A DNA stretch of 64,000 bases from Planctomycetota bacterium (GTDB lineage Bacteria; Planctomycetota; Phycisphaerae; Sedimentisphaerales; Anaerobacaceae), in the NCBI GenBank assembly GCA_023135865.1, contig JAGLSG010000064.1, positions 8,311 through 72,310 of the forward strand. Reading direction: 5' to 3'. This document shows, piece after piece, positions 10,405 through 31,362 of the stretch (position 1 is its first letter; each line of letters starts with the position of its first letter). A program made the translations under genes and the position numbers. The notes below the pieces were generated by a model, which did not search any database, was not told where the DNA came from, and was given only the letters and a program-made list of their open reading frames with translations.

Positions 10405-10425
10405 CCAATTGCCGACAGAAATCTA

Positions 10426-10881
10426 TTATTGTTTTTTCATTAGCTGGTTGTATTCGTTTTGGAATCTCAATTTGTGGGCAACTTCTTCTTCTGCAATTGC
10501 CATCAGAACTTCGCGAGTTTCCTGTTCATAAGCATTTGGCAGCAAATTCACGTAGGTTCTAAATGATGCCTCTTCCTTTTCAATAGCCATGAGAAGCATG
10601 TCCTTGTAATCCATATCCAACGATACCTTATCACCAATTAGAACACTTTTTTTGACATATTTTTCAGGAACTTCTCTTATTGTTATGGTTTTGCCAAGTT
10701 TAACAAGCTCCAGTTCCAGCTTAGCTTTGTGTTCCAATTCTTCTTCGGCCAGCTGTTCAAACATTTCACGAACCTTATCATCGCTTAGATACTCAGCCAG
10801 GCCGGTATAAAACTCATAAGCTTCTATTTCTCGTTCGATGGCAAATTCAAGAACTTCCTCAAAAGCATCCGTTTTTTCCAT
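10426..10881 (-). CDS. Ferritin-like/rubrerythrin-domain protein (no rubredoxin domain)
   Basis: 151 aa. Two E..H-type di-iron half-sites (EREIEAYEFY...EEELEHK and EKEEASFRTY...EEEVAHK). Confidence 0.7.
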   Translation of the reverse strand: MEKTDAFEEVLEFAIEREIEAYEFYTGLAEYLSDDKVREMFEQLAEEELEHKAKLELELVKLGKTITIREVPEKYVKKSVLIGDKVSLDMDYKDMLLMAIEKEEASFRTYVNLLPNAYEQETREVLMAIAEEEVAHKLRFQNEYNQLMKKQ

Positions 10882-11001
10882 TTTAGGCCTCTTTTTATCC
10901 CCAGTTATTTGGTATGCAAATTATACAAAATTGATGTAAAATTGCACAAGTTTATTTTTTTTCTTGAGATTGTGTTTATTTGGCATATTTTCAAAATTTT
11001 C

Positions 11002-11030
11002 TGGACAATTTTCAATCAGCTCGTTAGAAT
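11002..11030 (+). promoter_or_regulatory. Candidate sigma70-type promoter for rpmA (TGGACA-N17-TAGAAT)
   Basis: -35 TGGACA at 11002-11007, a 17-nt spacer, and -10 TAGAAT at 11025-11030, about 50 nt upstream of the rpmA ATG. Pattern match only. Confidence 0.35.
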
Positions 11031-11082
11031 TACGGGTTTGAGATTTGACGATAAAATTTACATAAGTTTTTAGAGGTATTTT

Positions 11083-11316
11083 ATGGCTCATAAAAAAGGA
11101 CAGGGTTCATCGAGAAACGGCCGAGACAGTGGTCCGCAATATAGAGGTGTTAAACTTTACGGCGGACAGGCAGCTTGTGCCGGCTCTATTATTGTAAGAC
11201 AGTGTGGAACGAAATTTTTCCCCGGCAATAATGTCGGAATGGGAAGAGATTTTACTCTTTTTGCAACTGCTGACGGCACGGTCGAATTCAAAGGCCGCAA
11301 AGTTCACATTGTCTGA
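11083..11316 (+). CDS. rpmA: 50S ribosomal protein L27
   Basis: [29 protein letters not shown] is the canonical L27 N-terminus. Confidence 0.97.
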
Positions 11317-11351
11317 CGACCAGATAGCTGTTAAAATAATCAATAACAATT

Positions 11352-11383
11352 AAGGATGGTATATTTTTTACCATCCTTTTTTT
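11352..11383 (+). terminator. Rho-independent terminator/attenuator between rpmA and obg
   Basis: 10-bp perfect stem AAGGATGGTA/TACCATCCTT (11352-11361 / 11369-11378), a 7-nt loop, then a T5 run. Confidence 0.7.
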
Positions 11384-11404
11384 ATAAAAGGTACGAGCAA
11401 CTAA

Positions 11405-12403
<999 letters not shown>

Positions 12404-12411
12404 CAACAAAC

Positions 12412-12449
12412 AACGCTTGCCCTCCATAGCTTGCGAAGGAGGGAGCAAC
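12412..12449. repeat. Short hairpin repeat (family H), copy 1; its 3' arm carries the coaX Shine-Dalgarno
   Basis: AACGCTTG-CCCTCC-atagcttgcgaa-GGAGGG-AGCAAC. The 6-bp stem is 12420-12425 / 12438-12443. Related copies lie at 13317-13364 and 25941-25984. Confidence 0.6.
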
Positions 12450-12454
12450 TAATT

Positions 12455-13246
12455 ATGAATATAATTGCGATAGATATTGGAAATACGAATACGGCAATCG
12501 GCTTATTTCTCAACGACAAAGAAGAATCAATAAAAACAATTGCAAATGATTCGCAGGTGGAACTGGCAAAGCATATCAAGTCTTGCTGGCAGAAAATTCC
12601 TGTTGTTAAAAATTCAAAAGAGAAAAAGCGAGATGGCGTTATTGTTGTAAGCTCAACCAAGCCGGCTGTAACAAAACTTATTGGCAAAATTATTAAAGAA
12701 AATATCGACGAAAAAATTCTGCTTATTGGCAAAGACATTCCACTTCCGATGAGTTTATGGGTGGATGAGCCGGACAAAGTCGGAACCGATAGAGTTGTTT
12801 CCGCTGCAGCGGCTTACGATGTTGTTGGAGATGCAGTGGTCATTGCCGATTTTGGAACAGCTGTTACGATTGACCTTGTCGATTCAAACGGCATTTTTCA
12901 GGGCGGCGTAATTTGTCCCGGCTTTGAAATCAGTGCAAGAGCATTAAAGGATAATACCGCTCAATTGCCGGAGGTAAAAGTTACACGGCCGGATTCACCT
13001 TACGGCAAAAACACAACCGAAGCTATAAATTGCGGCCTATACTATTGTGCAGTTGGTTTGCTTGAAGATATAATTCGGCGTTACGCAGAAAAAATCGGCA
13101 ACTGGCCGCAGACAATTCTAACCGGCTCAGCTGCAAATGTTATAAAAGATGATTGTGAGTTTATAGATTCATGGGTTCCGAATCTTGTAATTAAAGGCAT
13201 CGTCCTTACGTACAAAAAATATATCGAAGAAAAAGCAAATACATAA
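12455..13246 (+). CDS. coaX: Type III pantothenate kinase
   Basis: MNIIAIDIGNTNTAIGLF (ASKHA phosphate-1 motif) and ADFGTAVTID. I prefer ATG 12455 (GGAGGG 11 nt upstream) over the track's TTG at 12431. Confidence 0.9.
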   Translation: MNIIAIDIGNTNTAIGLFLNDKEESIKTIANDSQVELAKHIKSCWQKIPVVKNSKEKKRDGVIVVSSTKPAVTKLIGKIIKENIDEKILLIGKDIPLPMSLWVDEPDKVGTDRVVSAAAAYDVVGDAVVIADFGTAVTIDLVDSNGIFQGGVICPGFEISARALKDNTAQLPEVKVTRPDSPYGKNTTEAINCGLYYCAVGLLEDIIRRYAEKIGNWPQTILTGSAANVIKDDCEFIDSWVPNLVIKGIVLTYKKYIEEKANT

Positions 13247-17952: not shown

Positions 17953-19089
17953 ATGTCTTTGGCTATTATATCGGCTATGAAAAAGGTTCTTGCAGATAGG
18001 ACAAATAAAATCGACGCAAGCGGAATACGAAAAGTTTTCGCTCTCGCAGCCACAATGAAAAACCCAATAAATTTCTCAATCGGCCAGCCGGATTTTGATA
18101 TTCCCCAGCCAATAAAAGCTGAAGCAATAAAAGCCATTCAATCCGGCGCAAATAAGTATTCACTGACAGCCGGCGATGATGCTCTAAAAGAGAAAATAAC
18201 CAGTCAAATAAAAGATAAGTTCGGCTGGCAAAATCCATCGACAATTGTAACCAGCGGAGTAAGCGGCGGATTGCTGTTGGCTTTTATGACACTAATAAAT
18301 CCCGGCGATGAAGTCATAATACCAGACCCGTATTTCGTAATGTATAAACATCTCGTAAATATGCTCGGCGGAAAATGCGTTTTTGTTGACAGCTATCCTG
18401 ATTTTAATCTGCCGGTCGAAAAAATCAGCAAAGCCATAACGGATAAAACAAAAATTATCGTGCTAAATTCACCCTGCAATCCGACGGGAATTGTATATTC
18501 AGCAGAGCAAATCAAGGCAATGGCAAAAGTGGCAGCAGAAAAAGACATTCTCGTTATTACCGATGAAATCTACGACAGATTCTGCTACGACGGGCCGTGC
18601 CCGAGCATAGCGAGCTATTACGATAAAACGCTTTTGCTTGGCGGCTTTAGCAAAACCTACGCAATGACCGGCTGGCGGGTCGGATTTGCGACAGCACCGG
18701 CGGCACTGGCTGAAGTAATCGAGCAGATGACAAAAATTCAGCAATATACTTTTGTCTGTTCGCCCACGCCTTTTCAAAAGGCAGCTGTTGCGGCGATGGA
18801 TTACGATGTAAGTGATTTGGTTGCTGCATACAAAAAGAAACGGGATTTGATTTACAACGGCTTGAAGGAAAAGTTTGAACTTAATCTGCCCGGCGGTGCT
18901 TTTTACGCATTTGTAAAAGCGCCCGATGGAATTAGTGCAACAAAGTTTGTTGAAAAAGCCATTGCCAATAATGTTTTAATAATTCCCGGAAATGTTTTTA
19001 GTGAAAAGGATACGCATTTCAGGATAAGTTACGCAACCAGCGATGACAAAATCCAAGAGGGAATCGAAATCCTCTGCAAACTTGCATAG
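17953..19089 (+). CDS. PLP-dependent aminotransferase, class I/II (aspartate aminotransferase-like)
   Basis: 378 aa. NSPCNPTG and GGFSKTYAMTGWRVGF (PLP-lysine motif). Confidence 0.9.
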   Translation: MSLAIISAMKKVLADRTNKIDASGIRKVFALAATMKNPINFSIGQPDFDIPQPIKAEAIKAIQSGANKYSLTAGDDALKEKITSQIKDKFGWQNPSTIVTSGVSGGLLLAFMTLINPGDEVIIPDPYFVMYKHLVNMLGGKCVFVDSYPDFNLPVEKISKAITDKTKIIVLNSPCNPTGIVYSAEQIKAMAKVAAEKDILVITDEIYDRFCYDGPCPSIASYYDKTLLLGGFSKTYAMTGWRVGFATAPAALAEVIEQMTKIQQYTFVCSPTPFQKAAVAAMDYDVSDLVAAYKKKRDLIYNGLKEKFELNLPGGAFYAFVKAPDGISATKFVEKAIANNVLIIPGNVFSEKDTHFRISYATSDDKIQEGIEILCKLA

Positions 19090-19127: not shown

Positions 19128-20036
19128 TTATTCTATTGTATGTACAACATTCTCTGCCTGGCTTTGTATCTTTTTTTCAACAGTCTCTGTTACAGTATCT
19201 ATTATTCGGGTTTTTGTTTGTTCGTCTGTCAAATAGCTGTCAAGGCATTGGCTCAATTCGTCGGTTTTGAATGGCGGCTCAGAATATGCCCGAACGACGT
19301 AGCTTTCTGTTGTTCTTGAAAACCTCTTTCGCCATTTGCGTAATCTATCTTGCTCTGAATATCTTTCGATTTTTTGTTGATTTTTTTGCATAGCTGTCTC
19401 GTATTCATCTCGGAGATCTGTATCCTGTATGGTCTCCGATTCTATAGTGCCTGGGAACCCCATACTAATAGCTACGACATTAGGGCTGACTGTCACTTCA
19501 TTTGGGTCCCAACTTGGATCAATAGCAGTTATCAATCGTTTCCATGTATGCAGACGCACTTCCAGGTCTTTCTTCCTGCTTTGTGCAAAATCCTCACCTT
19601 TGGGTGCGTCAAACGCATACATTTTTGTTATTACATGATCAGTTAATTCCAGCTCTATAGTAACTGAGATTTTATCTGGTTCTTCCAAAGCAGACAAGGC
19701 ATATTCCCTTGCGAGTACAAATCTTCTGTTGCTTTTAAAACCTCCCGAAGTAAGTGGCTTACAAATCTCCAGCATCAAGCGAGCGTAATATTCTCTGTTA
19801 CTTTCTTGTTTCCATTTGTCCCGGATTTCATCGGCAAATTGTTCATATTTCCCAAGGTCGTTTGTTTGTCCCGGGGAGAGAGATTTACGCATTGCTCTTA
19901 TGCTGTTCATATCTTGCGTGTATTCCTGTTTTTGCATTTCTAAAGCATCAGAATTTACACCAAATGCTGCACTTTGCAGTAAAACAAAACACAAGAGAGC
20001 TAAAAAAGAAAATGTAATATATATTCTTTTTGACAT
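19128..20036 (-). CDS. Hypothetical secreted/membrane-anchored protein downstream of murG
   Basis: 302 aa. N-terminal signal/anchor FSFLALLCFVLLQSAAFG. The remainder is charged and helical with no recognised motif. It starts 27 nt after the murG stop on the same strand. Confidence 0.5.
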   Translation of the reverse strand: MSKRIYITFSFLALLCFVLLQSAAFGVNSDALEMQKQEYTQDMNSIRAMRKSLSPGQTNDLGKYEQFADEIRDKWKQESNREYYARLMLEICKPLTSGGFKSNRRFVLAREYALSALEEPDKISVTIELELTDHVITKMYAFDAPKGEDFAQSRKKDLEVRLHTWKRLITAIDPSWDPNEVTVSPNVVAISMGFPGTIESETIQDTDLRDEYETAMQKNQQKIERYSEQDRLRKWRKRFSRTTESYVVRAYSEPPFKTDELSQCLDSYLTDEQTKTRIIDTVTETVEKKIQSQAENVVHTIE

Positions 20037-20063
20037 AATTTATCCCCTTTCAAATATTAACAT

Positions 20064-21197
20064 TTAGGAACAACATAAATTTCCCAATAAGTTTTCTGCA
20101 ATTTGCAAAGCTGCATTTGTGTTTGCAATTGCTGCGTAATTTGTTTTCATTTGCTGCAATTGGTTTTGATTTTCCATAAGCGGATTTAATTTCAGCCAAA
20201 GAAACTCAGCACTATTAGCATCAATCGCCAAGTCATCAACTATCACCGCTGCGCCGGCCTCGACGAGTTTGGCTGCATTTAAGTATTGATGTTTATCTTT
20301 GTGATACGGATACGGAATACAAATAGCAGGCAAAACAGCTGCGGCATATTCGGCCACACTAACAGCTCCGCTTCGGCCAATAACCAGAGCAGCAGCGTTT
20401 AATAAATCCGGCATATTGTCATAATAATCCAGCAATTTATAATTGATTTCCGCATCAATATATTTCGCATTAACATTTTCAAAATCAGCTCGCCCCGTTA
20501 AATGAACGATTTGCCAATTGACGGCAAAGCCGTTTAATTTTTCCAGCAATGAACATATTATTTTGTTAACGTTCACAGCTCCACTTGATGCGCCGGTTAC
20601 GAGCAGTATTTTTTTATTTTTTTCAAGCTTTAATTGTTCAAATGCTTTATTGGCTTGCGGATTATCAAAACCGCTACGAAGTGGGCAGCCAAAAACATTA
20701 ACAGTAGCAGCATTTTTTACGAAATACTTTTTTGTATCTTCAAACTGCACAAAAATTTCGTTTGCCCAGCGACATATTATTTTATTGGCTCTTCCGGGAA
20801 CAATATCAACATTTATAGCTGCAATTGGAATTTTCATTTTCCTTGCAACGACACAAACGGGAACTGCTACAAATCCGCCAGTGCCAATTACAACTGATTT
20901 TTCGGCTTTGGAAATGATTTGTTTTGCAATTTTATAGCTTTTGAAAAATGATTTAACAAAACAAAAAAGCTTATTTGGTTTTATAGAAAATCGCAAAGCC
21001 GGCAAACAAGTATATTCAAAATCAGTTTGTTCGAGAATCTTGGAATCTATTTTACTGCTGCTAATAAAAAAATGAATTTTTGAATTCGGCTGTAATTCGA
21101 TGATTTTTTCAGCTACAGCTATTGCCGGATAAATATGGCCGCCAGTTCCACCGCCTGCAAAAAAAAATGTTTTATTACTAATAGTGTTCTGTCGCAT
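20064..21197 (-). CDS. murG: Undecaprenyldiphospho-muramoylpentapeptide beta-N-acetylglucosaminyltransferase
   Basis: FFAGGGTGGHIYPAIAVAE plus the C-terminal GT28 region (GRSGAVSVAEYAAA). I prefer ATG 21197 (MRQNTISNK...). The longest ORF (to 21323) reads through a palindromic repeat element. Confidence 0.88.
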   Translation of the reverse strand: MRQNTISNKTFFFAGGGTGGHIYPAIAVAEKIIELQPNSKIHFFISSSKIDSKILEQTDFEYTCLPALRFSIKPNKLFCFVKSFFKSYKIAKQIISKAEKSVVIGTGGFVAVPVCVVARKMKIPIAAINVDIVPGRANKIICRWANEIFVQFEDTKKYFVKNAATVNVFGCPLRSGFDNPQANKAFEQLKLEKNKKILLVTGASSGAVNVNKIICSLLEKLNGFAVNWQIVHLTGRADFENVNAKYIDAEINYKLLDYYDNMPDLLNAAALVIGRSGAVSVAEYAAAVLPAICIPYPYHKDKHQYLNAAKLVEAGAAVIVDDLAIDANSAEFLWLKLNPLMENQNQLQQMKTNYAAIANTNAALQIAENLLGNLCCS

Positions 21198-21212
21198 TTG
21201 AGTTGAGGAATT

Positions 21213-21279
21213 GTCATTCCGCACTTGATGCGGAATCCAGACTTTCGAGAAACTGGATTCCTGCTTTCGCAGGAATGAC
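21213..21279. repeat. GTCATT...AATGAC nested-palindrome element (family E), copy 1, between ftsW and murG
   Basis: GTCATTCCGCActtgaTGCGGAATcc...ggATTCCTGCtttcGCAGGAATGAC. It has two 8-bp hairpins plus complementary outer ends. Confidence 0.7.
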
Positions 21280-21322
21280 ACCCATCGATCAAGCTGCAAC
21301 AAAGCAATAGTGATGTTAGCCA

Positions 21323-22483
21323 TTATTGCTCATCCTCAATTTGCGTTTTGGGTGATTGACTCGCTATATTAATCAGCACGCCAACTGCAGCAGCGGTGAG
21401 AAGCAAACTTGTTCCGCCGGCACTTACAAACGGCAAAGGCACACCTTTTGTCGGCAGCATAGCTGTAGCTACGCCAATGTTAAGTGCGGCCTGGCCAACA
21501 ATTGACAAAACAATTCCAGCTGCGAGAAACTGGCCAAAACGGCTTTTGCATCGAACGATAACCATTATTCCGAGCAAAGCAAAAATGATAAACAAAACGA
21601 TGATTGCCGCTGCTCCAAAAAAACCAAGCTCTTCTGCAATTATGGAAAAAATAAAATCGGTTGTGTCTTCCGGCAAATGGCCGTATTTGCAAATTCCTCT
21701 GCCAAGCCCTTTTCCGAACAGGCCGCCTGAGCCAATCGCAATAAGAGATTGATTTGCCTGGTAGCCAGTTGAATCAGCCCATTTTTCAGGATTTAGAAAA
21801 GCTGCAATCCGCCGCATACGATTCGGCGAATGGATTAAAACCGCAGCAGCCGCAGCAAAACAAAACGGAAGCGGCGTTAAAACGTGCCAGAATTTTACGC
21901 CGGCAATTATCAACATTAGAAAACTCAAAAATAATATGAAAGCCGCTGTACCGAGATCTTCGGTAATTATTAATCCAGCCACAACAGCTACAACGCCGCA
22001 AATCGGCACAAATCTTTTCCAGTACAATTTTATGTCGCTGCCGATTCTATCGCAAATAGCAGCAAGAAAAAATATAACCGACCATTTGGCCAATTCTGAC
22101 GGCTGAAAACTAATCGTAATAGCTCCAATTGGAATCCGCAGCCATCGGCGAGCATAGTTTATTTCCGTACCAAATCGCGGAACAAGAACAATCGCAAGCA
22201 ATATTGCGCTCAAAGCCAAAATGTATGTGGTTGGTGATTTGAATAGGCCGGAATCCATACTGAATTTGCGGTAATTGAAACAGGAGGCAATATACATAAT
22301 CAGGCCAGCCAGCGGAAAAAACATCATTTGCCGCAAATGGGGAAATTCATAGAAACGGCTTAAATCGAATTCCTGCTCGACACTAACTCCAGCTGAAAAT
22401 ACAAAGACTACGCCGACAGCCATTAGGATAATGACCACCATAGCGATATTGCGAGCGAGCGAATTGTCTTTTATACTGTTCAC
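21323..22483 (-). CDS. ftsW: FtsW/RodA/SpoVE-family peptidoglycan glycosyltransferase
   Basis: 386 aa and about 10 TM. SHAPE-family motifs QPSELAKW, GLGRG...LPE..TDFIFS and GGTSLL. Confidence 0.9.
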   Translation of the reverse strand: MNSIKDNSLARNIAMVVIILMAVGVVFVFSAGVSVEQEFDLSRFYEFPHLRQMMFFPLAGLIMYIASCFNYRKFSMDSGLFKSPTTYILALSAILLAIVLVPRFGTEINYARRWLRIPIGAITISFQPSELAKWSVIFFLAAICDRIGSDIKLYWKRFVPICGVVAVVAGLIITEDLGTAAFILFLSFLMLIIAGVKFWHVLTPLPFCFAAAAAVLIHSPNRMRRIAAFLNPEKWADSTGYQANQSLIAIGSGGLFGKGLGRGICKYGHLPEDTTDFIFSIIAEELGFFGAAAIIVLFIIFALLGIMVIVRCKSRFGQFLAAGIVLSIVGQAALNIGVATAMLPTKGVPLPFVSAGGTSLLLTAAAVGVLINIASQSPKTQIEDEQ

Positions 22484-22559
22484 AATTGCATTTTCCCGTT
22501 TATTTTATCCGTTGAAAAGATTCATAATACGTGTATTTTCGGCTGACTGAAACAAATAA

Positions 22560-23190
22560 ATTTAGAATCCTTCGGCCACGCTCAGGACAGGTGTATGATT
22601 AAGAATTCAAAATTCAACTGGTTAGCCCTGCCATTACTATGGCGAGGTCATTTTCAATCAAAATCGTCAAAAAAATATTCGATTTGGGGAGTACAAAATC
22701 CGAAAATATGGCATTTTTCGGTTTTTTTTTATTCGATTTTTCGGCCAAACCTCATTTTTAGCCCAAAACCAAAGGGGGGCAAATCACCATGCGTAATTTA
22801 GATAAGATAAGTAAGAAAAAAACGGTCGAAAAGTGAGTGTTTTTTATCGTTTTTTGTCAATTTTGGTCAAAAATGAGCAGGAATTTACCGTTTTTCGTCA
22901 AAAATGAACCAGTTTTTTCATGACCTCTTTTTTTTGAATCAATCGTTTTGGAAAGTTTTTGGAACGGGAAATTAACCACGGATTTCACGGATTAACACGG
23001 ATTTCTAAGAATCTATTTTTGTTTAATCGCAGATTACACTGATTTCGCTGATTAAAAAGGCGGAATTTAACCACGAATTTTTCGTATTGTGTTCCTTCGA
23101 CTTCGCTACGCTCAGGACAGGCGTGCGTGATGTGTATTGCGTAATCGGTTAGCCCTGCCAGCACTTTGGCAGGGTTGAAAGTATTTGTTA
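22560..23190. repeat. Composite repeat block (left arm) flanking the orphan ATPase gene
   Basis: Modules in order: ACGCTCAGGACAGG + GGTTAGCCCTGCCA-N6-TGGC(A)GGG hairpin (22577-22647); T-rich 'tttttcg' tract; CACGGATT x3 (22974-23005); 41-nt core TTAATCGCAGATTACACTGATTTCGCTGATTAAAAAGGCGG (23023-23063); second ACGCTCAGGACAGG (23107-23123); hairpin GGTTAGCCCTGCCAgcacttTGGCAGGGTT (23147-23176). Confidence 0.75.
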
Positions 23191-23222
23191 CTGAATCTGT
23201 TTTTTATGACAAAAACGTGGTT

Positions 23223-25709
23223 TTAGTTTTTGTTGCTTAATGCTTTTGCAACAAATGAGCATGCTCCTGTAACAGGGCCTATAAAAGCCATCCCTATAAT
23301 TAAACTCAGATTAATCGGTATTTTCCAAACATACAGTAGATTAATGTTATGCCAAGTAGAATCTTTATTGGTTATCTCGGTCAAATTATCTCTAAATGTA
23401 AACGATAAGTCGGTAAATAAGCCGGTAAAAATTGCAACACTGATGTATAATAATAAAATAATAACAAAAGATTTGAAATATTCAATACAGCAAAAGTATC
23501 TTGCTCTCTTGAGAGCTGTCGCAAAATCCAAAACTTTACCTTTAATAAATATTGCTATAATAAAACTACAAAACACACCTATGCCTGCTGCAATTCCCAA
23601 AATTATAAGATCATCATAAAATTCATTATTGCCTACATCAACTATGAAAGATACCACTTTATCTATGTTTGCAATTGCTACGCTAATAATAGCAAAAAAT
23701 GGCACCATCAATAAAGTATTATTGATTAGGAGTTTTTTATACAATTTCCGTGAATCCGGCAAATCACAGTATTTTTCTGAAAAAACAGCCCTAAACATCA
23801 TCCATGCGAGACCTGCAAAGAAAGCCGCTACGACGAATGTTATTATAGTTCGGAGAATTTTTCCAGGAGTACCAGCTTCTGAAATCTCACCGGTGAAGAA
23901 TGCAGCTATAAATAAAGGAATAACAACAATAAAAAAAACGGTTACTGCAGGATGCCGAAAAAATCGGCCAGCTAAATTTTTACAGCACCCAAAATGTAGT
24001 TGCAAAACTGAAGTTGCGCGACTGTAATCATGTACTTCGACAAGTCGGTCAAAAGCGTTTTTTGTAAGTTCTTCAAAATCAGGAAATTTTTCATCCCCAA
24101 ACTTTTTCATATATTCTACTCTTACTGCCAAAAGTCTGTCAAAGCCGTTGCCAAATTTCATTTTCTTTTGTGTTTTTTCTAAAGACAAAATGCTTCTATC
24201 AAGGATTATTTTGCCTGTTTCGATTTTTATTTGTTTTTTTTGTTCCCCAAACCAGTCATTTCCTTCAAAATAACCACACAGCTTCTTAACGTAGTTGTCA
24301 ATTTCCCTCTCGATAGCTCCGCCATTTTTTGCTGCTCTGTAATTTTCCGTATTTGAATCGCAATATGACAGCAGATCACGTAAGACAGACAAAATTTTAT
24401 GCAGTCTGTCGCATTTTAAATAAATATCCCCAAGTTCTATCTCACTGTCATCCTGACGTTGTTCGTGCCAGTCTTCTACAAGACTTCCGAGAGTGTTTGT
24501 TATTTTTTTGACGTTTTCATAGTCGAGCTTAACGTAAGATTTGCAAATACCCTGTTCTATCCGTTCATACTTATCTGCAAGGGCGTTGATGTATTCTCTA
24601 ACATAATTTGTAAATGACTCAGAAAACAGCATTAACGCTCCTTCGTTTTTGTCATCATCTTTGAGTATTCCTCTGAGGTATAATGATTCTAATTCTTCGT
24701 GTATATCCATTTTTTCGCGATTTATTCCGTCTGTTCTTTGGGAAGTAATTAACCAGTCACGTTCTTTCTTTCCAAGCGATGACCACATCCGGTCAAATTC
24801 TTCATCTGCTTCGACACGATATTTTTTCGTCCATAAAACTTCTGGTTCATTGCCATTGGAAACCCAATCGAACAAATTTGCACAGGCTATTTTTAAGAAA
24901 TATGGATGTCTTCCGGCAATATCAATTGCCTCCCGACGTTGTTTTGCCGAAAAGTAATCTGCATCTTCGCCATGAAATTTTAAAGTTCCCACTATGAGTT
25001 GCTCGCATCCATTTTCCTGAAGGAGCCCCAAATACAACGGAGTGCTGAAATTATTATCAAATGGCGAACCGTCAGAGTCCGTCTCTCGAGATATTTGCGA
25101 CAACGGCTTTCTTGACGAAGTAACATATGCTAAAGCATAATTGTCTGAGATACCTCTTAGATAGTGTAAAAATTTTACATCTTCATGTGCGAGATTTCTG
25201 GCCAATAGCTCAAATTCATCGAAAAGAAAAACAAAACGGTATTTTTTTTCACAGGCATCCCGAAGCAAATTTTTCAGTATAATTTGTGGATGCCGTTGGT
25301 GTGCTTCTTTTTTATCAAGAGCTTTCGGATAATATTCGACAAATTCTGCAAGTTCAGGTTTTTCTGAAATAATTTCGTCAATAAGAATCCATGTAAATTC
25401 CTTTGAACTGCTGGTATTAATTTCTTCAGGGTCAATCATTATGCAGACAAACTTTTCCGGTTCAATTAACTTATCTTCGTATTCTTTCCAAACATCACAC
25501 TTTCTCTTTGAAAATATTTGATATATCCTGGTGAGTAGGGATGATTTGCCGGATCTCCGTTCGCCTATTACTGCTACGCTTTGTGGTTCTTTATAAGTAA
25601 TGTTTTTGATTATGTAATCTAACTCACGTTTTCTGCCGAAAAACTCTGCCGGTTCCGTAACTTTATTACGGTTCAAAAAAGGATTCATTTTTGTTTTAAC
25701 AGCTGGCAT
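23223..25709 (-). CDS. Orphan P-loop NTPase (Arch_ATPase/AAA_16, STAND-like) fused to a C-terminal 6-helix membrane domain
   Basis: 828 aa. FFGRKRELDYI...VIGERRSGKSSLL (Walker A, aa 49-57); YRFVFLFDEFE (Walker B, aa 157-167); PLYLGLL and GRHPYFLKIA (STAND/Arch_ATPase-like helical and wHTH signatures); helical region aa ~370-585. Six hydrophobic segments lie at about aa 588-606, 618-642, 660-682, 700-722, 745-765 and 797-822. RBS is GGGAGGaaattcaATG. Confidence 0.8.
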   Translation of the reverse strand: MPAVKTKMNPFLNRNKVTEPAEFFGRKRELDYIIKNITYKEPQSVAVIGERRSGKSSLLTRIYQIFSKRKCDVWKEYEDKLIEPEKFVCIMIDPEEINTSSSKEFTWILIDEIISEKPELAEFVEYYPKALDKKEAHQRHPQIILKNLLRDACEKKYRFVFLFDEFELLARNLAHEDVKFLHYLRGISDNYALAYVTSSRKPLSQISRETDSDGSPFDNNFSTPLYLGLLQENGCEQLIVGTLKFHGEDADYFSAKQRREAIDIAGRHPYFLKIACANLFDWVSNGNEPEVLWTKKYRVEADEEFDRMWSSLGKKERDWLITSQRTDGINREKMDIHEELESLYLRGILKDDDKNEGALMLFSESFTNYVREYINALADKYERIEQGICKSYVKLDYENVKKITNTLGSLVEDWHEQRQDDSEIELGDIYLKCDRLHKILSVLRDLLSYCDSNTENYRAAKNGGAIEREIDNYVKKLCGYFEGNDWFGEQKKQIKIETGKIILDRSILSLEKTQKKMKFGNGFDRLLAVRVEYMKKFGDEKFPDFEELTKNAFDRLVEVHDYSRATSVLQLHFGCCKNLAGRFFRHPAVTVFFIVVIPLFIAAFFTGEISEAGTPGKILRTIITFVVAAFFAGLAWMMFRAVFSEKYCDLPDSRKLYKKLLINNTLLMVPFFAIISVAIANIDKVVSFIVDVGNNEFYDDLIILGIAAGIGVFCSFIIAIFIKGKVLDFATALKRARYFCCIEYFKSFVIILLLYISVAIFTGLFTDLSFTFRDNLTEITNKDSTWHNINLLYVWKIPINLSLIIGMAFIGPVTGACSFVAKALSNKN

Positions 25710-25769
25710 TTGAATTTCCTCCCATGTATTGAAACGAGTCCTTAGAAATCTCTAATGTTTACGAAGCAA

Positions 25770-25799
25770 AGTATAATGGTGTTGTGGTTTAAATTGCAA
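25770..25799 (-). promoter_or_regulatory. Candidate promoter of the orphan ATPase gene (TTGCAA-N18-TATACT on the minus strand)
   Basis: -35 TTGCAA (25799-25794), an 18-nt spacer, and -10 TATACT (25775-25770), about 55 nt upstream of the ATG. Pattern match only. Confidence 0.4.
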
Positions 25800-25840
25800 C
25801 AAAAAAATGTTAGAATGTTTAGTGTCGGTCATCTGTTTTT

Positions 25841-26260
25841 CCTTAGCCCCTTCGCAAGAAATTAAGGGGTAATGAAAAAACATCGAAAATAAAACCCGAT
25901 AGAAAAGAACCCTGCCATAGTGATGGCAGGGCTAACCCGTCTTCGCTAAAGCTTCCGCCTTCGTTAAAACTTCGGCGAGACAAGACGACGCGACAGGCCA
26001 AAAACGCAATACGAAATACACATCATAAAATATCCCTCCTTGACAGGAGGGGCTCTGTTGGGAACTAAACACGAAAAAATCCGTGTAATCAGCGTAATCC
26101 GTGGTTAAATTTTTCTGCCTTTTTAATCAGCGAAATCAGCGTAATCTGCGATTAAAATGCAATCAAAAGCCCTGAAAATCAAAAAAATGACAGAAAAACA
26201 CCAAAAAACACCAAAAAATGATGAAAATCCGTAAAAATTTATAAAAAATCGCAAAAAATA
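25841..26260. repeat. Composite repeat block (right arm), inverted relative to the left arm
   Basis: Hairpin CCCCTTcgcaagaaattAAGGGG; AACCCTGCCAtagtgaTGGCAGGGCTAACC (25908-25937, reverse complement of the 23147-23176 hairpin); family-H copy 3 (25941-25984); CCCTCCttgacaGGAGGG (26034-26051); AATCCGTG repeats (26078-26103). The core at 26115-26155 is the reverse complement of 23023-23063 with 2 mismatches in 41. An A-rich tract follows to ~26260. Confidence 0.75.
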
Positions 26261-26271
26261 ATATTTAGTTG

Positions 26272-26301
26272 TTGCACATTCCCTTTTCTACTTCCTATAA
26301 T
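26272..26301 (+). promoter_or_regulatory. Candidate cspA promoter (TTGCAC-N18-TATAAT) with ~105-nt 5' UTR
   Basis: -35 at 26272-26277 and -10 at 26296-26301. The long leader is typical of cold-shock genes. Confidence 0.5.
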
Positions 26302-26412
26302 AACAATATTGAAATATGGGGTTGCTATTTGGTCTCTCAGTATCGCTCCCAATTAAAACTAATAGAGAGACACTAAGAACTGCTCTTTTAAGCAGAGTCA
26401 AGGAGAACACAA

Positions 26413-26616
26413 GTGAGTACAGGTACAGTAAAATGGTTCAACGCAAGTAAAGGTTATGGTTTTATTACTCCTGATGATGGTGGAGATGATCTCTTCGTAC
26501 ATCATTCAGAAATTAAGACCTCTGGCTACGCATCACTCGACGAAGGTCAAACTGTTGAGTTTGAAGTCGGCCAAGGCAAGAAAGGCCCATGTGCAACAAA
26601 CGTAATTCCCGGCTAA
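26413..26616 (+). CDS. cspA: Cold-shock protein (CspA family)
   Basis: [31 protein letters not shown] (RNP1/RNP2 motifs). GTG start with AAGGAGA 6 nt upstream. Confidence 0.95.
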
Positions 26617-26961: not shown

Positions 26962-27017
26962 CACTGAAAGACAGTCAGTAAAATAAACATTTGATTAAGG
27001 CGATAACGGACAAACTT

Positions 27018-28934
27018 ATGCCAAAAGTAACACTGCCAAACGGCAGTATCTTAGAAGTAGAAAACGGCGAAACTGCAAAACAGGCAGCTGAAAAAATAGG
27101 GCCGGCTCTCGCAAAGGCAGCACTGGCTGCAAAAATCAACGGCGAAATAAAAGACCTCTCAACTCCTATCAATAACAATATCAAAATAGAAATCATCACG
27201 CCAAAAAGCAGTGAAGCCCTCGAAATTATGCGGCATAGCTGTGCTCACATAATGGCTGAGGCAATATGCAAAATTTTTCCAGCGGCAAAACTCGTCTATG
27301 GGCCGACAGTTGAAAACGGATTCTATTACGATGTAGACCTCGATGAGCCGATTCGGCCAGATGATTTTGAGCGTATAGAAAACCAAATGCAAAAAATCGT
27401 CAAAGCAGATACCCCTTTCGTGCGAACGGAAATGTCAAAAGACGAAGCATTAAAAAAACTGGCCAGCGATAAATACAAACTCGATAATGTCAAAAACGCT
27501 GACAGTGATACGCTCAGTTTTTATTCACATTCGGACAGCTTTGAAGATTTGTGCAGAGGCCCGCACGTGCCGAGTACCGGCAAAATCGGCAGCTTCAAAA
27601 TTATGTCGGTGGCTGGTGCGTACTGGCACGGCGATGCAACTCAAAAAATGCTGCAAAGAGTTTACGGAACTTGCTGGCAAACAAAAAAAGAACTGGGCGC
27701 TTATCTTGAACGGCTCGAGGAAGCAAAAAAACGAGACCATCGGCTGCTTGGAAAACAATTGGATTTGTTCAGCTTCAATCAGGCCGGCCCCGGTTTTGCA
27801 TTCATTCACGCAAAGGGAATGGTTATCTGGAATGAGATAATCGATTTCTGGAGAAGCATACACGACAAATATGGTTATCAGGAAATCCGCACACCGATTA
27901 TTCTAAATGAAGAATTGTGGCACAAAAGCGGGCATTGGGATAACTACAAAGAAAATATGTATTTCACAAACGTGGATGGAAACAACTACGCAATTAAACC
28001 GATGAATTGCCCCGGCGGATGCCTGGTCTATAAAGCACGTCAACATTCGTACCGTGAATTCCCGATGAAAGTAGCTGAGCTTGGCCTGGTTCATCGCCAC
28101 GAAGCAAGCGGCGTTATGCACGGACTGTTCAGGGTGCGACAATTTACGCAGGACGATGCTCATATTTTCTGCACGCCGGAGCAAATCGAAGCTGAAATAA
28201 TCGGCGTAATCGAACTCACATTTGAAATTTACAGAGCGTTCGGATTTGAAGATTTCCATATCGAGCTTTCAACAAAACCCGAAAAGCATATCGGTTCCGA
28301 TGAAATGTGGGACACGGCAACAAACGCTTTGAAAAATGCACTAAAGCAAAAAAATATCGACTATAAAATCAACGAAGGTGATGGTGCTTTCTATGGGCCA
28401 AAAATAGATTTCCATATAAAGGATTGTCTCGGCAGGTCGTGGCAGCTCGGAACTATCCAATTGGATTTCTCAATGCCGCAGCGGTTTGGCCTTGTTTATA
28501 CGGACAAAGATAATATCGAGAAAACGCCGGTGATGATTCATCGAGCGGTACTCGGCTCATTCGAAAGATTCATAGGAATCCTGATTGAGCATTATGCTGG
28601 CAATATGCCGCTATGGCTTGCACCGCAGCAGGTAAGAATTCTCACAATCAGTGAAAAAACAAATGACTATGCAAAAACTGTTTACCAAAAACTAAAAGAT
28701 GCAAAACTGCGATGCGGCGTGGATTTGTCGAATGAAAAAATAAATGCAAAAATAGCAAAAACACACGGCGAAAAACTGCCATATATGCTAATAGTAGGCC
28801 AAAAAGAAGCTGAATCAAATACCGTAAATGTAAGAATTGCGGGATGCAGGGAAACTAAAACGATGAGCGTTGATGAATTTTTGAGAAGTGCAGAGAATAA
28901 AATAGCCGATAAGGAAATGGATTTACAAATATAA
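27018..28934 (+). CDS. thrS: Threonine--tRNA ligase
   Basis: MPKVTLPNGS... TGS domain, the HSCAHIM editing motif, and class II motifs (FRVRQFTQDDAHIF, GAFYGPKID). I prefer ATG 27018; the track ORF begins at TTG 26991. Confidence 0.96.
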   Translation: MPKVTLPNGSILEVENGETAKQAAEKIGPALAKAALAAKINGEIKDLSTPINNNIKIEIITPKSSEALEIMRHSCAHIMAEAICKIFPAAKLVYGPTVENGFYYDVDLDEPIRPDDFERIENQMQKIVKADTPFVRTEMSKDEALKKLASDKYKLDNVKNADSDTLSFYSHSDSFEDLCRGPHVPSTGKIGSFKIMSVAGAYWHGDATQKMLQRVYGTCWQTKKELGAYLERLEEAKKRDHRLLGKQLDLFSFNQAGPGFAFIHAKGMVIWNEIIDFWRSIHDKYGYQEIRTPIILNEELWHKSGHWDNYKENMYFTNVDGNNYAIKPMNCPGGCLVYKARQHSYREFPMKVAELGLVHRHEASGVMHGLFRVRQFTQDDAHIFCTPEQIEAEIIGVIELTFEIYRAFGFEDFHIELSTKPEKHIGSDEMWDTATNALKNALKQKNIDYKINEGDGAFYGPKIDFHIKDCLGRSWQLGTIQLDFSMPQRFGLVYTDKDNIEKTPVMIHRAVLGSFERFIGILIEHYAGNMPLWLAPQQVRILTISEKTNDYAKTVYQKLKDAKLRCGVDLSNEKINAKIAKTHGEKLPYMLIVGQKEAESNTVNVRIAGCRETKTMSVDEFLRSAENKIADKEMDLQI

Positions 28935-28995
28935 AGTAATAAATTATTGATAATCAATTAGAAAGGTCTGGTGATATACAATCGGTAAACAGGCA

Positions 28996-29499
28996 TTGAA
29001 AATAAACGGTGGAATCAGAGCGGAAAACGTTCGCTTAATCGATGAAGAAAATAATAAAATCGGAATTGTGACACGGCAAGAAGCGATTAGCAAGGCACGC
29101 CAGGCCGGACTCGACCTCGTTGAAGTTGCACCTACGTCCGACCCGCCAGTTTGCAAAATTATGGATTACGGCAAATGGCAGTACGAGCAGAAACGCAAAA
29201 TGCGTCAGAGCCATAAGAAAAGTCAGCAGCACGTAAACACGCTAAAGGAAGTTCGGCTGCGACCAGAAACAGATACGCACGATATGGAAATCAAGCTCAA
29301 ACATGCACGTGAATTTCTGGGAAAAGGACACAGGGTACAATTTACAATGTTGTTCCGCGGACGGCAAATGCTGCACAGAGATAGAGGGCACGAAGTATTC
29401 GCTCAAATAATTGAATCGCTTGAAGATATGGCAAAAGTTGAGCAGCGAGGCAGGATGGCCAATAGACGAATGACAATGCTGCTTTCACCAATAAAATAA
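28996..29499 (+). CDS. infC: Translation initiation factor IF-3 (non-ATG start)
   Basis: KINGGIRAENVRLIDEENNKIGIV...PPVCKIMDYGKWQYE...LFRGRQM. There is no in-frame ATG; the start is TTG 28996 (or ATC 28981). Confidence 0.92.
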   Translation: MKINGGIRAENVRLIDEENNKIGIVTRQEAISKARQAGLDLVEVAPTSDPPVCKIMDYGKWQYEQKRKMRQSHKKSQQHVNTLKEVRLRPETDTHDMEIKLKHAREFLGKGHRVQFTMLFRGRQMLHRDRGHEVFAQIIESLEDMAKVEQRGRMANRRMTMLLSPIK

Positions 29500-29684
29500 T
29501 CGGCATTGTACTTCGGCCAGTAAAATTTTAGTAAAAAACAGTATTTATATAGGATACCGCTGTTAATTTGCCAGTTTTTCGGATATTTTTGTACTGCGCT
29601 ATTGACCAGCTGTAATAAATACTATAAGCTGGCTTTCTTTGTAATTTCAGGTTATTATCCGTACTCGTTAGAGGGATCAGTCAA

Positions 29685-29879
29685 ATGCCAAAACAGAAAA
29701 CCCATAAGGGGTTAGCAAAAAGAGTAAAAGTTACCGCTTCGGGTAAAGTTAAAAGTAAAGGTGCGGGCAGTGGACACTTGATGAGCAGCAAAAACGCAAA
29801 ACGCAGAAGGCGAATCTCTACTCCATCAATAATGAATAGTGCGTCCGCTAAAACAGCGAAAATAAAACTCGGTAAATAA
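29685..29879 (+). CDS. rpmI: 50S ribosomal protein L35
   Basis: MPKQKTHKGLAKRVKVTASGKVK. Confidence 0.95.
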   Translation: MPKQKTHKGLAKRVKVTASGKVKSKGAGSGHLMSSKNAKRRRRISTPSIMNSASAKTAKIKLGK

Positions 29880-29897
29880 AAAAACAAAATCAATCGT

Positions 29898-29984
29898 CGC
29901 TAATAATTAATTAGCGCAGCTTGCTTCTCGGCTTATGACCATTACCATAAAATAATGGTTCTATCAGCTGCCGTTAGCAAGCTG
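29898..29984 (+). promoter_or_regulatory. Structured rpmI-rplT spacer (possible L20-responsive or processing element)
   Basis: Hairpin CGCTAAT-aatta-ATTAGCG (29898-29916). A 9-bp stem CAGCTTGCT/AGCAAGCTG (29917-29925 / 29976-29984) encloses the inner hairpin ACCATTA-N8-TAATGGT (29938-29959). It ends 33 nt before the rplT ATG. Confidence 0.3.
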
Positions 29985-30016
29985 TAAATATAACAAACTC
30001 TTAAAGGAAAGCTGAT

Positions 30017-30370
30017 ATGCCAAGAGTAAGAAAAGGTGCCGCAAGGCATCAAGCCAAAAAAAGAATTCTAAAAGCTGTCAAGGGACATCGCGGTGCGGCA
30101 GGCCGACTTTACCGACTCGCAAAAGAAGCTGTGGTTCGAGCCGGAGTCAATGCCCGAATCGGCCGTAAACTCAAAAAACGTGATTTCCGCAAACTCTGGA
30201 TAATCCGCATCAATGCCGCTTGCAGGCAAAGAGGTTTAAGATACAGCGAGTTTGTCAATGGCTGCAAAAAAGCCAACATCCAGCTCAACAGAAAAATGCT
30301 GAGCGAAATTGCAATTGCCGATCCAGCTGGTTTCGATTCGATTGTCGAGATTGTCAAAAAAGCGATATAA
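30017..30370 (+). CDS. rplT: 50S ribosomal protein L20
   Basis: MPRVRKGAARHQAKKRILKAVKGHRG. Confidence 0.97.
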   Translation: MPRVRKGAARHQAKKRILKAVKGHRGAAGRLYRLAKEAVVRAGVNARIGRKLKKRDFRKLWIIRINAACRQRGLRYSEFVNGCKKANIQLNRKMLSEIAIADPAGFDSIVEIVKKAI

Positions 30371-30372
30371 AA

Positions 30373-31362
30373 ATGCTTGAGCAGTTCGAGAAAATTGGTA
30401 AAGAAGCTCTCGCTGCCTTAAAGAACATCGAAGATTCGGCGGCGATGGAGGAATTTCGTATAAAATATCTGGCTCGAAAAGGCCAGGTTACGGAAATGCT
30501 CGGCCAAATAGGTAAATTCTCCGCAGAAGAAAAACCAAAAGCAGGCCAGCTTGCAAACAAAATAAAAAAAGAGGTAACCGCAGCATTTGAGCAATTAAAA
30601 GCAACCTTAGGCAAAAAACAAAACAAAACTGCCGATTCAATAGATGTTACTATTCCAGGCATAATTCCAAATGTCGGCAAAAGCCACATCATAACGCAAA
30701 CCACGAATGAACTGCTGGAAATATTCGGCAGAATGGGTTTTGATTTTGCATACGGCCCGGAGGTCGAGGACGAATGGCATAATTTTGTCGCACTAAACAT
30801 CAACGAAGAACATCCGGCACGAGACCCGCTCGATAATTTTTATATCGACGACAAAACACTACTACGAAGCCAGACCTCGACAATTCAAATTCGAGTTATG
30901 GAAAATAATAAACCACCAATCAGAGTTGTTGCTCCGGGAAGGGTTTATCGGCCAGACACCGTTGATGCAACACATATGTATATGTTCCACCAATTGGAAG
31001 CACTCGTTGTTGACGAAAATATCAGTATGGTGGATATGAAAACAGCTATCAATCAATTCATTCACGCATTTTTCGGAGCCGATACGAAATGGCGATTTCG
31101 GCCGAGTTTCTTTCCATTCACCGAGCCAAGCGCCGAGATTGATTTGCTCTGGGTTGACAAAAACGGCAAGGAAAGTTGGATTGAAATGGGCGGCTGCGGA
31201 ATGGTTGACCCAAATGTTTTCGATGCTGTTGGAATAGACAATGAAAAATATACCGGATGGGCTTTCGGATTCGGAATAGAACGACTCGCTATGAGAAAAT
31301 ACGGTATTACAGACATTCGCCTGCTGTTTGAAAATGACCTGCGATTCCTAAAACAAGCTTAA
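30373..31362 (+). CDS. pheS: Phenylalanine--tRNA ligase alpha subunit
   Basis: MLEQFEKIGKEAL... and class II motifs (HPARDPLDNFY, RVVAPGRVYR, FRPSFFPFTEPS, GFGIERLAM). ATG 30373 lies 2 nt after the rplT stop. The track's 30220 start overlaps rplT and is rejected. Confidence 0.95.
   Translation: MLEQFEKIGKEALAALKNIEDSAAMEEFRIKYLARKGQVTEMLGQIGKFSAEEKPKAGQLANKIKKEVTAAFEQLKATLGKKQNKTADSIDVTIPGIIPNVGKSHIITQTTNELLEIFGRMGFDFAYGPEVEDEWHNFVALNINEEHPARDPLDNFYIDDKTLLRSQTSTIQIRVMENNKPPIRVVAPGRVYRPDTVDATHMYMFHQLEALVVDENISMVDMKTAINQFIHAFFGADTKWRFRPSFFPFTEPSAEIDLLWVDKNGKESWIEMGGCGMVDPNVFDAVGIDNEKYTGWAFGFGIERLAMRKYGITDIRLLFENDLRFLKQA

Follow-up and report, generated by a model that had tools for sequence, protein, structure and literature searches.

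Which role is played by the only long open reading frame (ORF) between ftsW (21323-22483) and cspA (26413-26616) in the genome of a planctomycete, and is that role one of immunity? The DNA analysed, here called the window, is a stretch of 64,000 nucleotides of a Planctomycetota bacterium (GenBank assembly GCA_023135865.1, contig JAGLSG010000064.1, positions 8,311 to 72,310 of the forward strand). The gene in question is the following:

23223..25709, minus strand: complete coding sequence, ATG start, 828 amino acids (aa); nSTAND2 NTPase, helical region and module of six transmembrane (TM) helices.

From bacteria to plants and animals, STAND/NLR-type NTPases serve as central switches of innate immunity, and effectors that act on membranes rank among the most poorly understood outputs. 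To our knowledge, phage defence in Planctomycetota is essentially unexplored. An initial annotation made from the letters of the sequence had pointed to this ORF as an orphan STAND-like protein with a possible defensive role, and both the ORF and the motifs quoted for it were confirmed, coordinates included. According to the ORF list of the window, the reading frame is intact and encodes a single polypeptide with three parts. We report here that the protein is a real new architectural variant of STAND NTPase, in which nSTAND2 is joined to a previously undescribed helical/6-TM module. With respect to its function, our best guess, and a tentative one, is that of a single-gene membrane-acting conflict module of the anti-phage or abortive-infection type; it must be noted that the genomic surroundings give no confirmation of an immune role.

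The N-terminal NTPase module

As judged from its motifs and its predicted fold, the N-terminal module is a STAND-type NTPase of the formal family nSTAND2 whose catalytic and switch motifs are all intact. Motif conservation was read from an alignment of 13 family members, and the elements identified are given below.

25632..25685, minus strand: N-terminal motif NPFLNRNKVTxPxEFFGR (residues 9-26), ahead of the P-loop, from the alignment; N9, P10, R14, K16, T18, F23, G25 and R26 invariant.
25539..25565, minus strand: Walker A/P-loop GERRSGKSS (residues 49-57); G49, R51, R52, G54, K55, S56 and S57 invariant.
25209..25235, minus strand: Walker B FVFLFDEFE (residues 159-167); F159, D164, E165, F166 and E167 invariant; strand at 158-164 in the model.
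25110..25133, minus strand: strand 4 and sensor-1-type arginine LAYVTSSR (residues 193-200); L193, A194, T197 and S199 invariant, R200 kept in at least 90% of the sequences; strand at 193-199 in the model.
25044..25067, minus strand: family-signature motif SPFDNNFS (residues 215-222); S215, P216, F217, N219, N220 and F221 invariant.
24600..25019, minus strand: helical lid with the GxP motif GRHPYFLK (residues 266-273; G266, P269, Y270 and K273 invariant) and winged helix (residues ~293-362), closing the STAND module.

The Pfam match to nSTAND2 (PF20702) scored 35.6 bits against a curated cutoff of 24, which places the protein in the family by the gathering threshold, though the match is partial (residues 158-299, profile positions 112-248 of 279). 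Precomputed PF20702 matches were present in all 11 full-length homologues. Below threshold there were matches to nSTAND1, ATPase_2 (PF01637, 21.9 bits, under its cutoff of 33.2), AAA_22 and AAA_16. No Pfam match to NACHT, NB-ARC, TPR or KAP (PF07693) was obtained, the last being absent even at E<=1, and an NCBIfam search of the 828-aa protein matched nothing.

The defining features of the STAND class, reportedly set out by Leipe, Koonin and Aravind in 2004, were found in the protein: the P-loop core (Walker A GxxxxGK[ST], Walker B hhhhD[DE]), and also the strand-4 arginine, the GxP lid and the winged helix, with the structural part taken from a predicted model. This AlphaFold2 model (pLDDT 74.9) had the expected strand order, followed by helices at 232-345 and a hairpin at 349-351/358-361; its winged-helix element (~293-361) comprised three helices and a beta-hairpin, and the segment LESLYLRGIL fell within 293-362. 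In Foldseek, residues ~1-390 were closest to 2qen (E=2.6e-8, target TM-score 0.59) and 2fna (E=3.3e-5, 0.61), with ~390 columns aligned, and ORC/Cdc6 ranked after both. The earlier description of the module as a STAND NTPase of Arch_ATPase/AAA_16 type is therefore supported by PF20702 above its cutoff, by the sub-threshold ATPase_2 and AAA_16 matches, and by the fold nearest to 2qen and 2fna.

The C-terminal half

From residue 364 onward the model was entirely alpha-helical. The features of this half of the protein are as follows.

23970..24599, minus strand: all-alpha middle region (residues 371-580), predicted to be cytoplasmic, candidate sensor or stalk; long helices, pLDDT 80-94.
24018..24155, minus strand: invariant polar patch of the middle region, FGNGxD (residues 519-524) plus R555, D561 and R564, from the alignment; F519, N521, G522, D524, R555, D561 and R564 are invariant in 13 sequences.
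23226..23969, minus strand: membrane module (residues 581-828), six TM-like helices, helical in both models.
23490..23516, minus strand: cytoplasmic-face motif ALKRARYFC between TM4 and TM5; R735 and Y738 invariant, A732 nearly so.

The six hydrophobic segments (~588-609, 616-643, 661-680, 701-723, 739-766 and 799-821) had Kyte-Doolittle 19-residue means of 1.7-2.7 and kept their positions in 12 of 12 close homologues, while the hydropathy scan gave no hydrophobic segment within residues 1-580. Averaged over 12 sequences, the number of lysines plus arginines was 5.2 before TM1, 4.1 in loop 2-3 and 3.7 in loop 4-5; in the remaining loops it was 0.2 (the short loop 1-2), 1.4 (the short loop 3-4) and 2.7 (loop 5-6, of 33 residues). 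Because these residues are enriched in the pre-TM1, TM2-3 and TM4-5 loops, hydropathy and loop charge together would fit a six-pass topology with both termini inside. The models, the hydropathy and the loop charges thus bear out the initial annotation in its account of a helical region devoid of recognised motifs followed by six hydrophobic segments.

Mean pairwise identity fell along the protein, from 54% in the NTPase core to 38% in the lid and winged helix, 31% in the helical region and 24% in the TM region. The conserved positions of the TM region lie at the cytoplasmic face (LPxSxKL in loop 2-3 and RAxYF before TM5), and the family alignment contained no conserved polar residue inside any TM helix. 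Since such residues are missing, membrane disruption fits better than a defined transporter; together with the conservation gradient, this would fit a membrane-disrupting rather than a transport function.

Searches with the C-terminal half did not relate it to any described domain. Against Pfam, the sole match was to MscS_TM, below threshold and in one of 12 members. Profile searches against the sequences of the PDB gave nothing meaningful for this half, and the best they returned was noise at the level of the P-loop (Rad50, E=0.002). A separate model of this half (pLDDT 76.9, pTM 0.74) gave a best E of 0.5 in Foldseek against the PDB, and the best E against viral predicted structures was 0.1. 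An MscS-like channel (PF12794) was considered and rejected: the match reached 21.2-22.6 bits against a cutoff of 28, and no channel fold was recovered by Foldseek; we regard it as a chance match of hydrophobic sequence. The helical plus 6-TM module, of ~460 aa, is a candidate new domain family.

Distribution and genomic context

A search of 5.8 billion clusters gave 17 hits, including 11 full-length homologues at 35-49% identity, with one outlier (P0013) at 28%. An exhaustive HMM search, run against 1.84 billion representatives with a profile built on residues 371-828, recovered 22 proteins, all of them family members or fragments except two marginal hits of coiled-coil type; among these representatives the C-terminal module was never seen with another N-terminus. 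The family thus amounts to ~20 representatives, Phycisphaerae/Planctomycetota throughout where a taxon label exists. One full-length copy was found in 185,579 species-representative genomes (L010, the Phycisphaerae metagenome-assembled genome (MAG) STA_45), and one in JGI metagenome contigs, which were scanned with the full-length family alignment. FtsW orthologues at 66-72% identity in the same clade form more than 100 clusters, so that, set against the few STAND copies, the gene occurs in a small minority of related organisms.

Two peculiarities of individual copies were observed. The copy of STA_45 (9959-12675) is broken by a frameshift, due to either pseudogenisation or a sequencing error, into two ORFs that overlap (9959-10768 and 10765-12675). 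The closest homologue (P0002, from JGI; 49% identity, 865 aa) carries at its source the name 'transcription termination factor NusB', which was disregarded as an evident misannotation.

Genomic context was compared in the window and eight other loci. In all nine, the gene is solitary between intergenic gaps, and its neighbours differ every time: ftsW-murG and cspA-thrS in the window and, elsewhere, leucine biosynthesis with a MacAB-type pump; radical-SAM with PLD; pyrimidine biosynthesis; LarN with PEP-CTERM proteins; hydrogenase, MCP and two-component genes; and thiamine genes. One copy (L175) stands amid MCP, two-component and sigma-54 genes. In three relatives, whose FtsW shows 67-69% identity, nothing but ftsW-murG is kept, the upstream DNA differs in each, and no nSTAND gene was found at these ftsW-murG loci. 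Given the rearrangement seen at this distance, the result is one of non-synteny and not a clean empty site. It had been anticipated that the gene would have no fixed syntenic context, and the nine differing loci and the relatives' ftsW-murG loci agree with this. The family is rare, solitary and non-syntenic, which fits the behaviour of an accessory gene.

PADLOC models were also run on unannotated or suspicious neighbours, and revealed a GajA/AriA-type ATPase (L006), PDC-S01 (L176) and a weak DrmC-like PLD (L004). Recurrent adjacency, as expected of defence-island or mobile-element cargo, was not observed in this small sample of nine loci. No second STAND, GT4 or HEPN gene lies beside the copy in the window or in the eight other loci.

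The window comes from a Planctomycetota MAG, whose FtsW is MCK4913940.1, and the locus is also present in GCA_030633685.1. Within the same population, no assembly spanning the site lacks the gene; three carry it unchanged, and the fourth has the nonsynonymous change S757R. The mismatch-free tract also covers murG and ftsW, and therefore carries no signal of selection specific to the gene.

Relatives of the NTPase alone

More than 200 loci share with our protein just residues ~1-370, at 27-32% identity, and belong to Acidobacteriota, Calditrichota, Spirochaetota, Clostridia, Fibrobacterota and other phyla. In nine of ten sampled relatives nSTAND2 was detected at 110-200 bits. A large and widespread set (Acidobacteriota, Calditrichota, Fibrobacterota, other phyla) joins nSTAND2 to a Ser/Thr protein kinase on either side, some members adding an adenylate/guanylate cyclase (L012, L016, L017, L022, L028, L055, L057, L083); its members carry a related NPYLNR...FFGR motif, FFGR being residues 23-26 of our protein. 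Relatives from outside the family have SPFFNIFS in place of SPFDNNFS. Others are stand-alone nSTAND2 proteins of 330-360 aa (L027, L030, L041, L067, L076, L088). A further group of ~1400-aa proteins from Blastocatellia and Clostridia MAGs (L024, L025, L032, L038, L042, L044, L086) look like receptor-type membrane STANDs, with a signal/TM segment, a ~900-aa Reg_prop/CarboxypepD_reg ectodomain, a second TM segment and a C-terminal NTPase related to ours; in L025, nSTAND2 itself was undetected at E<=1e-4. Finally, in P0014 a linker connects nSTAND2 to a C-terminal CHAT protease, and P0015 and P0016 join the conflict adaptor EAD7 to nSTAND2/AAA_35. The CHAT fusion indicates that the C-terminal output position is used within this NTPase clade, and the two kinds of fusion together indicate that the clade works with both conflict-type and signalling-type partners.

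The kinase and cyclase relatives keep alive an alternative already raised in the initial annotation, that of a STAND ATPase tethered to the membrane, with a signalling or regulatory role and no relation to immunity. In such a protein the 6-TM module would be an anchor and/or an input that senses the state of the membrane or periplasm, and the NTPase a nucleotide-gated scaffold, recruiting cytoplasmic partners or regulating them via the helical patch. The nearest NTPase relatives are fusions to Pkinase, to Pkinase plus Guanylate_cyc, or to a Reg_prop ectodomain and TM segment; the neighbourhoods are housekeeping or signalling in nature, as in L175; and the invariant patch (FGNGxD, R555, D561, R564) together with RAxYF suggests a conserved partner or ligand. 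The missing defence-database match and the fixation of the gene in its population point the same way. However, no recognisable output domain (HTH effector, kinase, cyclase) occurs in the family, the TM helices lack conserved polar residues of a kind that might point to the sensing of a ligand, and the periplasmic loops, being short or variable, are also modelled poorly. A housekeeping signaller would moreover be expected to be commoner and syntenic in the clade, whereas this family is very rare and never syntenic. On balance we consider a non-immune signalling role, the chief rival of the immune one, rather unlikely.

The receptor-type relatives bear on a different assignment of parts, that of a defence or stress sensor with reversed roles: the membrane module would detect a disturbance of the envelope (the injection of a phage genome, for instance, or damage of a holin-like kind), and the oligomerised NTPase-helical part would be the output, acting on unlinked partners. 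The cytoplasmic parts are the most conserved, the invariant helical patch suits a fixed partner, the NTPase stands at the extreme N-terminus with no effector domain ahead of it, and relatives of the L025 type (ectodomain, TM, NTPase) place this NTPase clade downstream of a membrane-spanning input. Nevertheless, no conserved neighbouring partner gene was found in any locus, and the TM region, being the least conserved and having short external loops, is a poor candidate for a specific sensor. We therefore regard reversed roles as improbable.

Base composition and expression signals

Among the 42 window ORFs of at least 150 aa, the STAND gene has both the lowest G+C content (0.357) and the lowest G+C at third codon positions, or GC3 (0.302); the means were 0.424 (standard deviation (sd) 0.028) and 0.384 (sd 0.036), respectively, so the gene lies ~2.3-2.4 sd below them. 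The direction of the AT-richness reported in the initial annotation was thus right, but its size had been overstated by hand counts, the deviation being ~2.4 sd. A promoter-like signal of its own and a strong ribosome-binding site had also been attributed to the gene. Both are present, at consensus level only:

25718..25723, minus strand: Shine-Dalgarno sequence GGGAGG, 8 nt upstream of the ATG, read directly.
25799-25770, minus strand: promoter-like site TTGCAA-18-TATACT, 9 of 12 matches, a consensus match only.

Such promoter-like sites are common in the AT-rich DNA of this region (21 found against 12.9 expected), and for this reason the site is weak evidence.

Flanking repeats

The gap around the gene had been described as filled with repeats, and indeed both intergenic regions (22484-23222 and 25710-26412) hold short GC-rich repeats, the main clusters of which are these:

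23022..23176, no strand: left (3'-side) repeat cluster, with block B' (23022-23079), block X (23128-23143) and hairpin A (23147-23176).
25908..26156, no strand: right (5'-side) repeat cluster, with A' (25908-25937), X' (26010-26025) and B (26096-26156), and a tandem partial copy at 26078-26109.
22575..22659, no strand: second copy of the GC-rich unit and hairpin A, upstream of ftsW (direct repeats D8 and D11).

The D8/D11 copy is ~530 bp from that at 23105-23176, and its hairpin unit is at 22620-22659. Hairpin A is palindromic and terminator-like. Three inverted blocks are colinear: 23022-23079 with 26156-26096 (61 bp, 90%), 23128-23143 with 26025-26010 (16 bp, 94%) and 23147-23176 with 25937-25908 (30 bp, 93%). 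None of the main repeat blocks occurs elsewhere in the window, the sole outside match being an unrelated GC-rich stretch of 35 bp (25950-25984 with 13354-13321). Small ORFs of 52-68 aa at 25843-26001, 22985-23164 and 22595-22801 are translated GC-rich repeat units and probably not genes.

This arrangement raises the question of whether the gene is the cargo of a small non-autonomous mobile cassette (~23022-26156) or of an invertible, phase-variable segment. The three blocks bracket the gene and are without copies elsewhere in the window, the gene has the window's lowest G+C content, and two independent assemblies break within the repeat zones: L171 ends inside the right cluster at ~26000-26006, and L174 breaks at ~22701. 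On the other side, the flanks of homologues are not comparable, with just a 42-bp inverted match of 83% in L175 and one of 19 bp in L006; the window repeats are missing from the loci of other species except for a weak match to the hairpin unit (30 bp, 90%), and the exact hairpin is confined to loci of the same population. No transposase or recombinase was found nearby and no target-site duplication was identified. In addition, the inverted orientation of block A is uninformative, since that block is a palindromic hairpin, and the gene has the same orientation in all four assemblies that include it. A cassette of this kind is therefore very improbable, and the flanking repeats are regarded as lineage-specific repetitive extragenic palindrome (REP)-like elements accumulated in two long intergenic regions.

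Comparison with known systems

The nSTAND2 family was described by Kaur, Iyer, Burroughs and Aravind (2021, eLife) as part of a two-gene operon, predicted to be mobile and to act against invaders, that pairs an active STAND with an inactive one and has GT4 or HEPN effectors (PMC8195603). Our protein shares the NPxLNR...FFGR, GERRxGKSS, DEFE, SPFxNxFS and GxP motifs with members that score 110-200 bits. It differs from them in its low score (35.6 bits), in being a single gene with no second STAND and no GT4 or HEPN, which sets it apart from the two-gene operon, and in its helical/6-TM module, undescribed for nSTAND2.

Like Avs and bNACHT, it is a single large polypeptide built around a STAND NTPase switch, and its logic may be similar, with sensing, NTP-dependent oligomerisation and effector activation. 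Some Avs proteins use pore-forming membrane effectors (PMC13001434). The order of domains differs, however, from that of the Avs and bNACHT proteins with which the initial annotation drew a parallel: in an Avs the effector is N-terminal, the NTPase central and a TPR-like repeat sensor C-terminal, whereas our protein has its NTPase from residue 9 onward, its membrane module last and no repeat sensor. The protein is not an Avs, and no PADLOC Avs or NLR model matched it at E<=1.

Tmn (YobI family) is a single-gene, membrane-embedded P-loop NTPase that acts at the membrane on phage recognition (PMC13001434). It resembles our protein in its alpha-helical cytosolic region, the lack of a conserved operon and its diverse contexts, but it is ~1270 aa long, with two TM helices inside the P-loop domain and long solenoid arms, whereas here six C-terminal TM helices lie outside the NTPase. 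With no TM segment within residues 1-580 and no PADLOC Tmn match, the protein falls outside Tmn.

The best fold matches for residues ~1-390, the archaeal Walker-type ATPases PAB2304 (2qen) and SSO1545 (2fna), are soluble proteins of ~350 aa without a membrane module and are 13-14% identical to ours in sequence. KAP NTPases have four TM helices, which are not C-terminal; our protein differs in its six C-terminal TM helices and gave no PF07693 match, and does not belong among them. The KAP proteins PifA and Kidins220/ARMS are P-loop NTPases that associate with membranes and have been implicated in signalling and in phage exclusion (PMC13001434). The earlier statement that the protein could not be placed in a named defence family was upheld, there being no real PADLOC match and none to KAP, NACHT or NB-ARC.

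Proposed function

In the conflict module that we tentatively favour, the ADP-bound NTPase would keep the protein monomeric at rest. The helical middle region would bind a trigger, or the trigger would be sensed at the membrane, and nucleotide exchange would be promoted, upon which the NTPase and winged-helix modules would oligomerise as in other STANDs. The clustered, poorly conserved 6-TM bundles might then leak ions or otherwise damage the inner membrane, and the infected cell would be arrested. Several observations speak for this: the six conserved hydrophobic helices with their positive-inside pattern, the intact STAND motifs, the CHAT precedent for a C-terminal output, the relatives with the conflict adaptor EAD7, the original description of nSTAND2 in predicted mobile operons directed against invaders (PMC8195603), the conservation gradient, the rarity of the family and its nine different neighbourhoods, and the lowest GC and GC3 of 42 ORFs. 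Additionally, single-gene membrane P-loop defence proteins are known, namely Tmn and PifA, as are Avs proteins with pore-forming effectors (PMC13001434).

A considerable number of points weigh against it. With respect to the context, no integrase, transposase, prophage or defence gene adjoins the gene in any of the nine loci, and defence-like genes occur in just 2-3 of them, 5-6 kb away across housekeeping genes; the enrichment of defence genes or mobile elements that the initial annotation proposed as a check was not found. No copy was detected on viral contigs, phage records or plasmid records. The gene is fixed across the assemblies of its population, the flanking inverted repeats are population-specific and absent around homologues, and the compositional deviation is modest, the adjoining murG being nearly as AT-rich (0.375/0.312). 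With respect to the protein, no repeat-type sensor (TPR, WD40, LRR) was found in it, and the invariant polar patch suggests a conserved partner and not a fast-evolving pathogen sensor. No PADLOC family matched (best mad8, E=0.002, P-loop only), nor did any PHROG, and the majority of the closest NTPase relatives have classic signalling modules, Ser/Thr kinases or adenylate/guanylate cyclases, as their fusion partners.

A more specific form of the immune proposal is plausible, albeit doubtful. The protein would be a new single-polypeptide immune receptor of inverted layout (STAND first, a novel helical sensor, a novel six-helix membrane effector last), which would kill or arrest infected Phycisphaerae by means of an NTP-driven, membrane-damaging oligomer, and its C-terminal half would be a new effector domain.

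Other observations in the window

Sharp patches of mismatch were seen between assemblies of the same population, at window positions 27000-30500 and 20000-20500 with respect to L173 and 18300-19000 with respect to L172. They reach ~10% across the 3' end of thrS, infC and rpmI, with kilobases of perfect identity between them, which suggests strain mosaicism, recombination or chimeric consensus assembly.

The murG ORF (20064-21323, 419 aa) is ~45-50 aa longer at the N-terminus than the MurG of relatives (369-377 aa). The extra stretch (21198-21322, minus strand) is a GC-rich, double-hairpin, REP-like element (ATTCCTGCGAAAGCAGGAAT ... TCCGCATCAAGTGCGGA), and the true start is probably the ATG near 21197 (MRQNTISNK...). 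Downstream of murG, a 302-aa ORF (19128-20036, minus strand) has a hydrophobic signal-like N-terminus and is present in all same-population assemblies; it had no Pfam match.

Significance

If the protein is a defence module, it would add to the known systems an 828-aa one-gene design from Planctomycetota that lacks a repeat sensor and has a membrane effector domain of a new kind. If it is a signalling protein, nSTAND2 modules would be general membrane-proximal switches, and caution would be advisable before calling every orphan bacterial STAND immune. Either way, its helical and 6-TM module stands as a candidate new domain family, without a match in Pfam, in PDB sequences or folds, or among viral folds.

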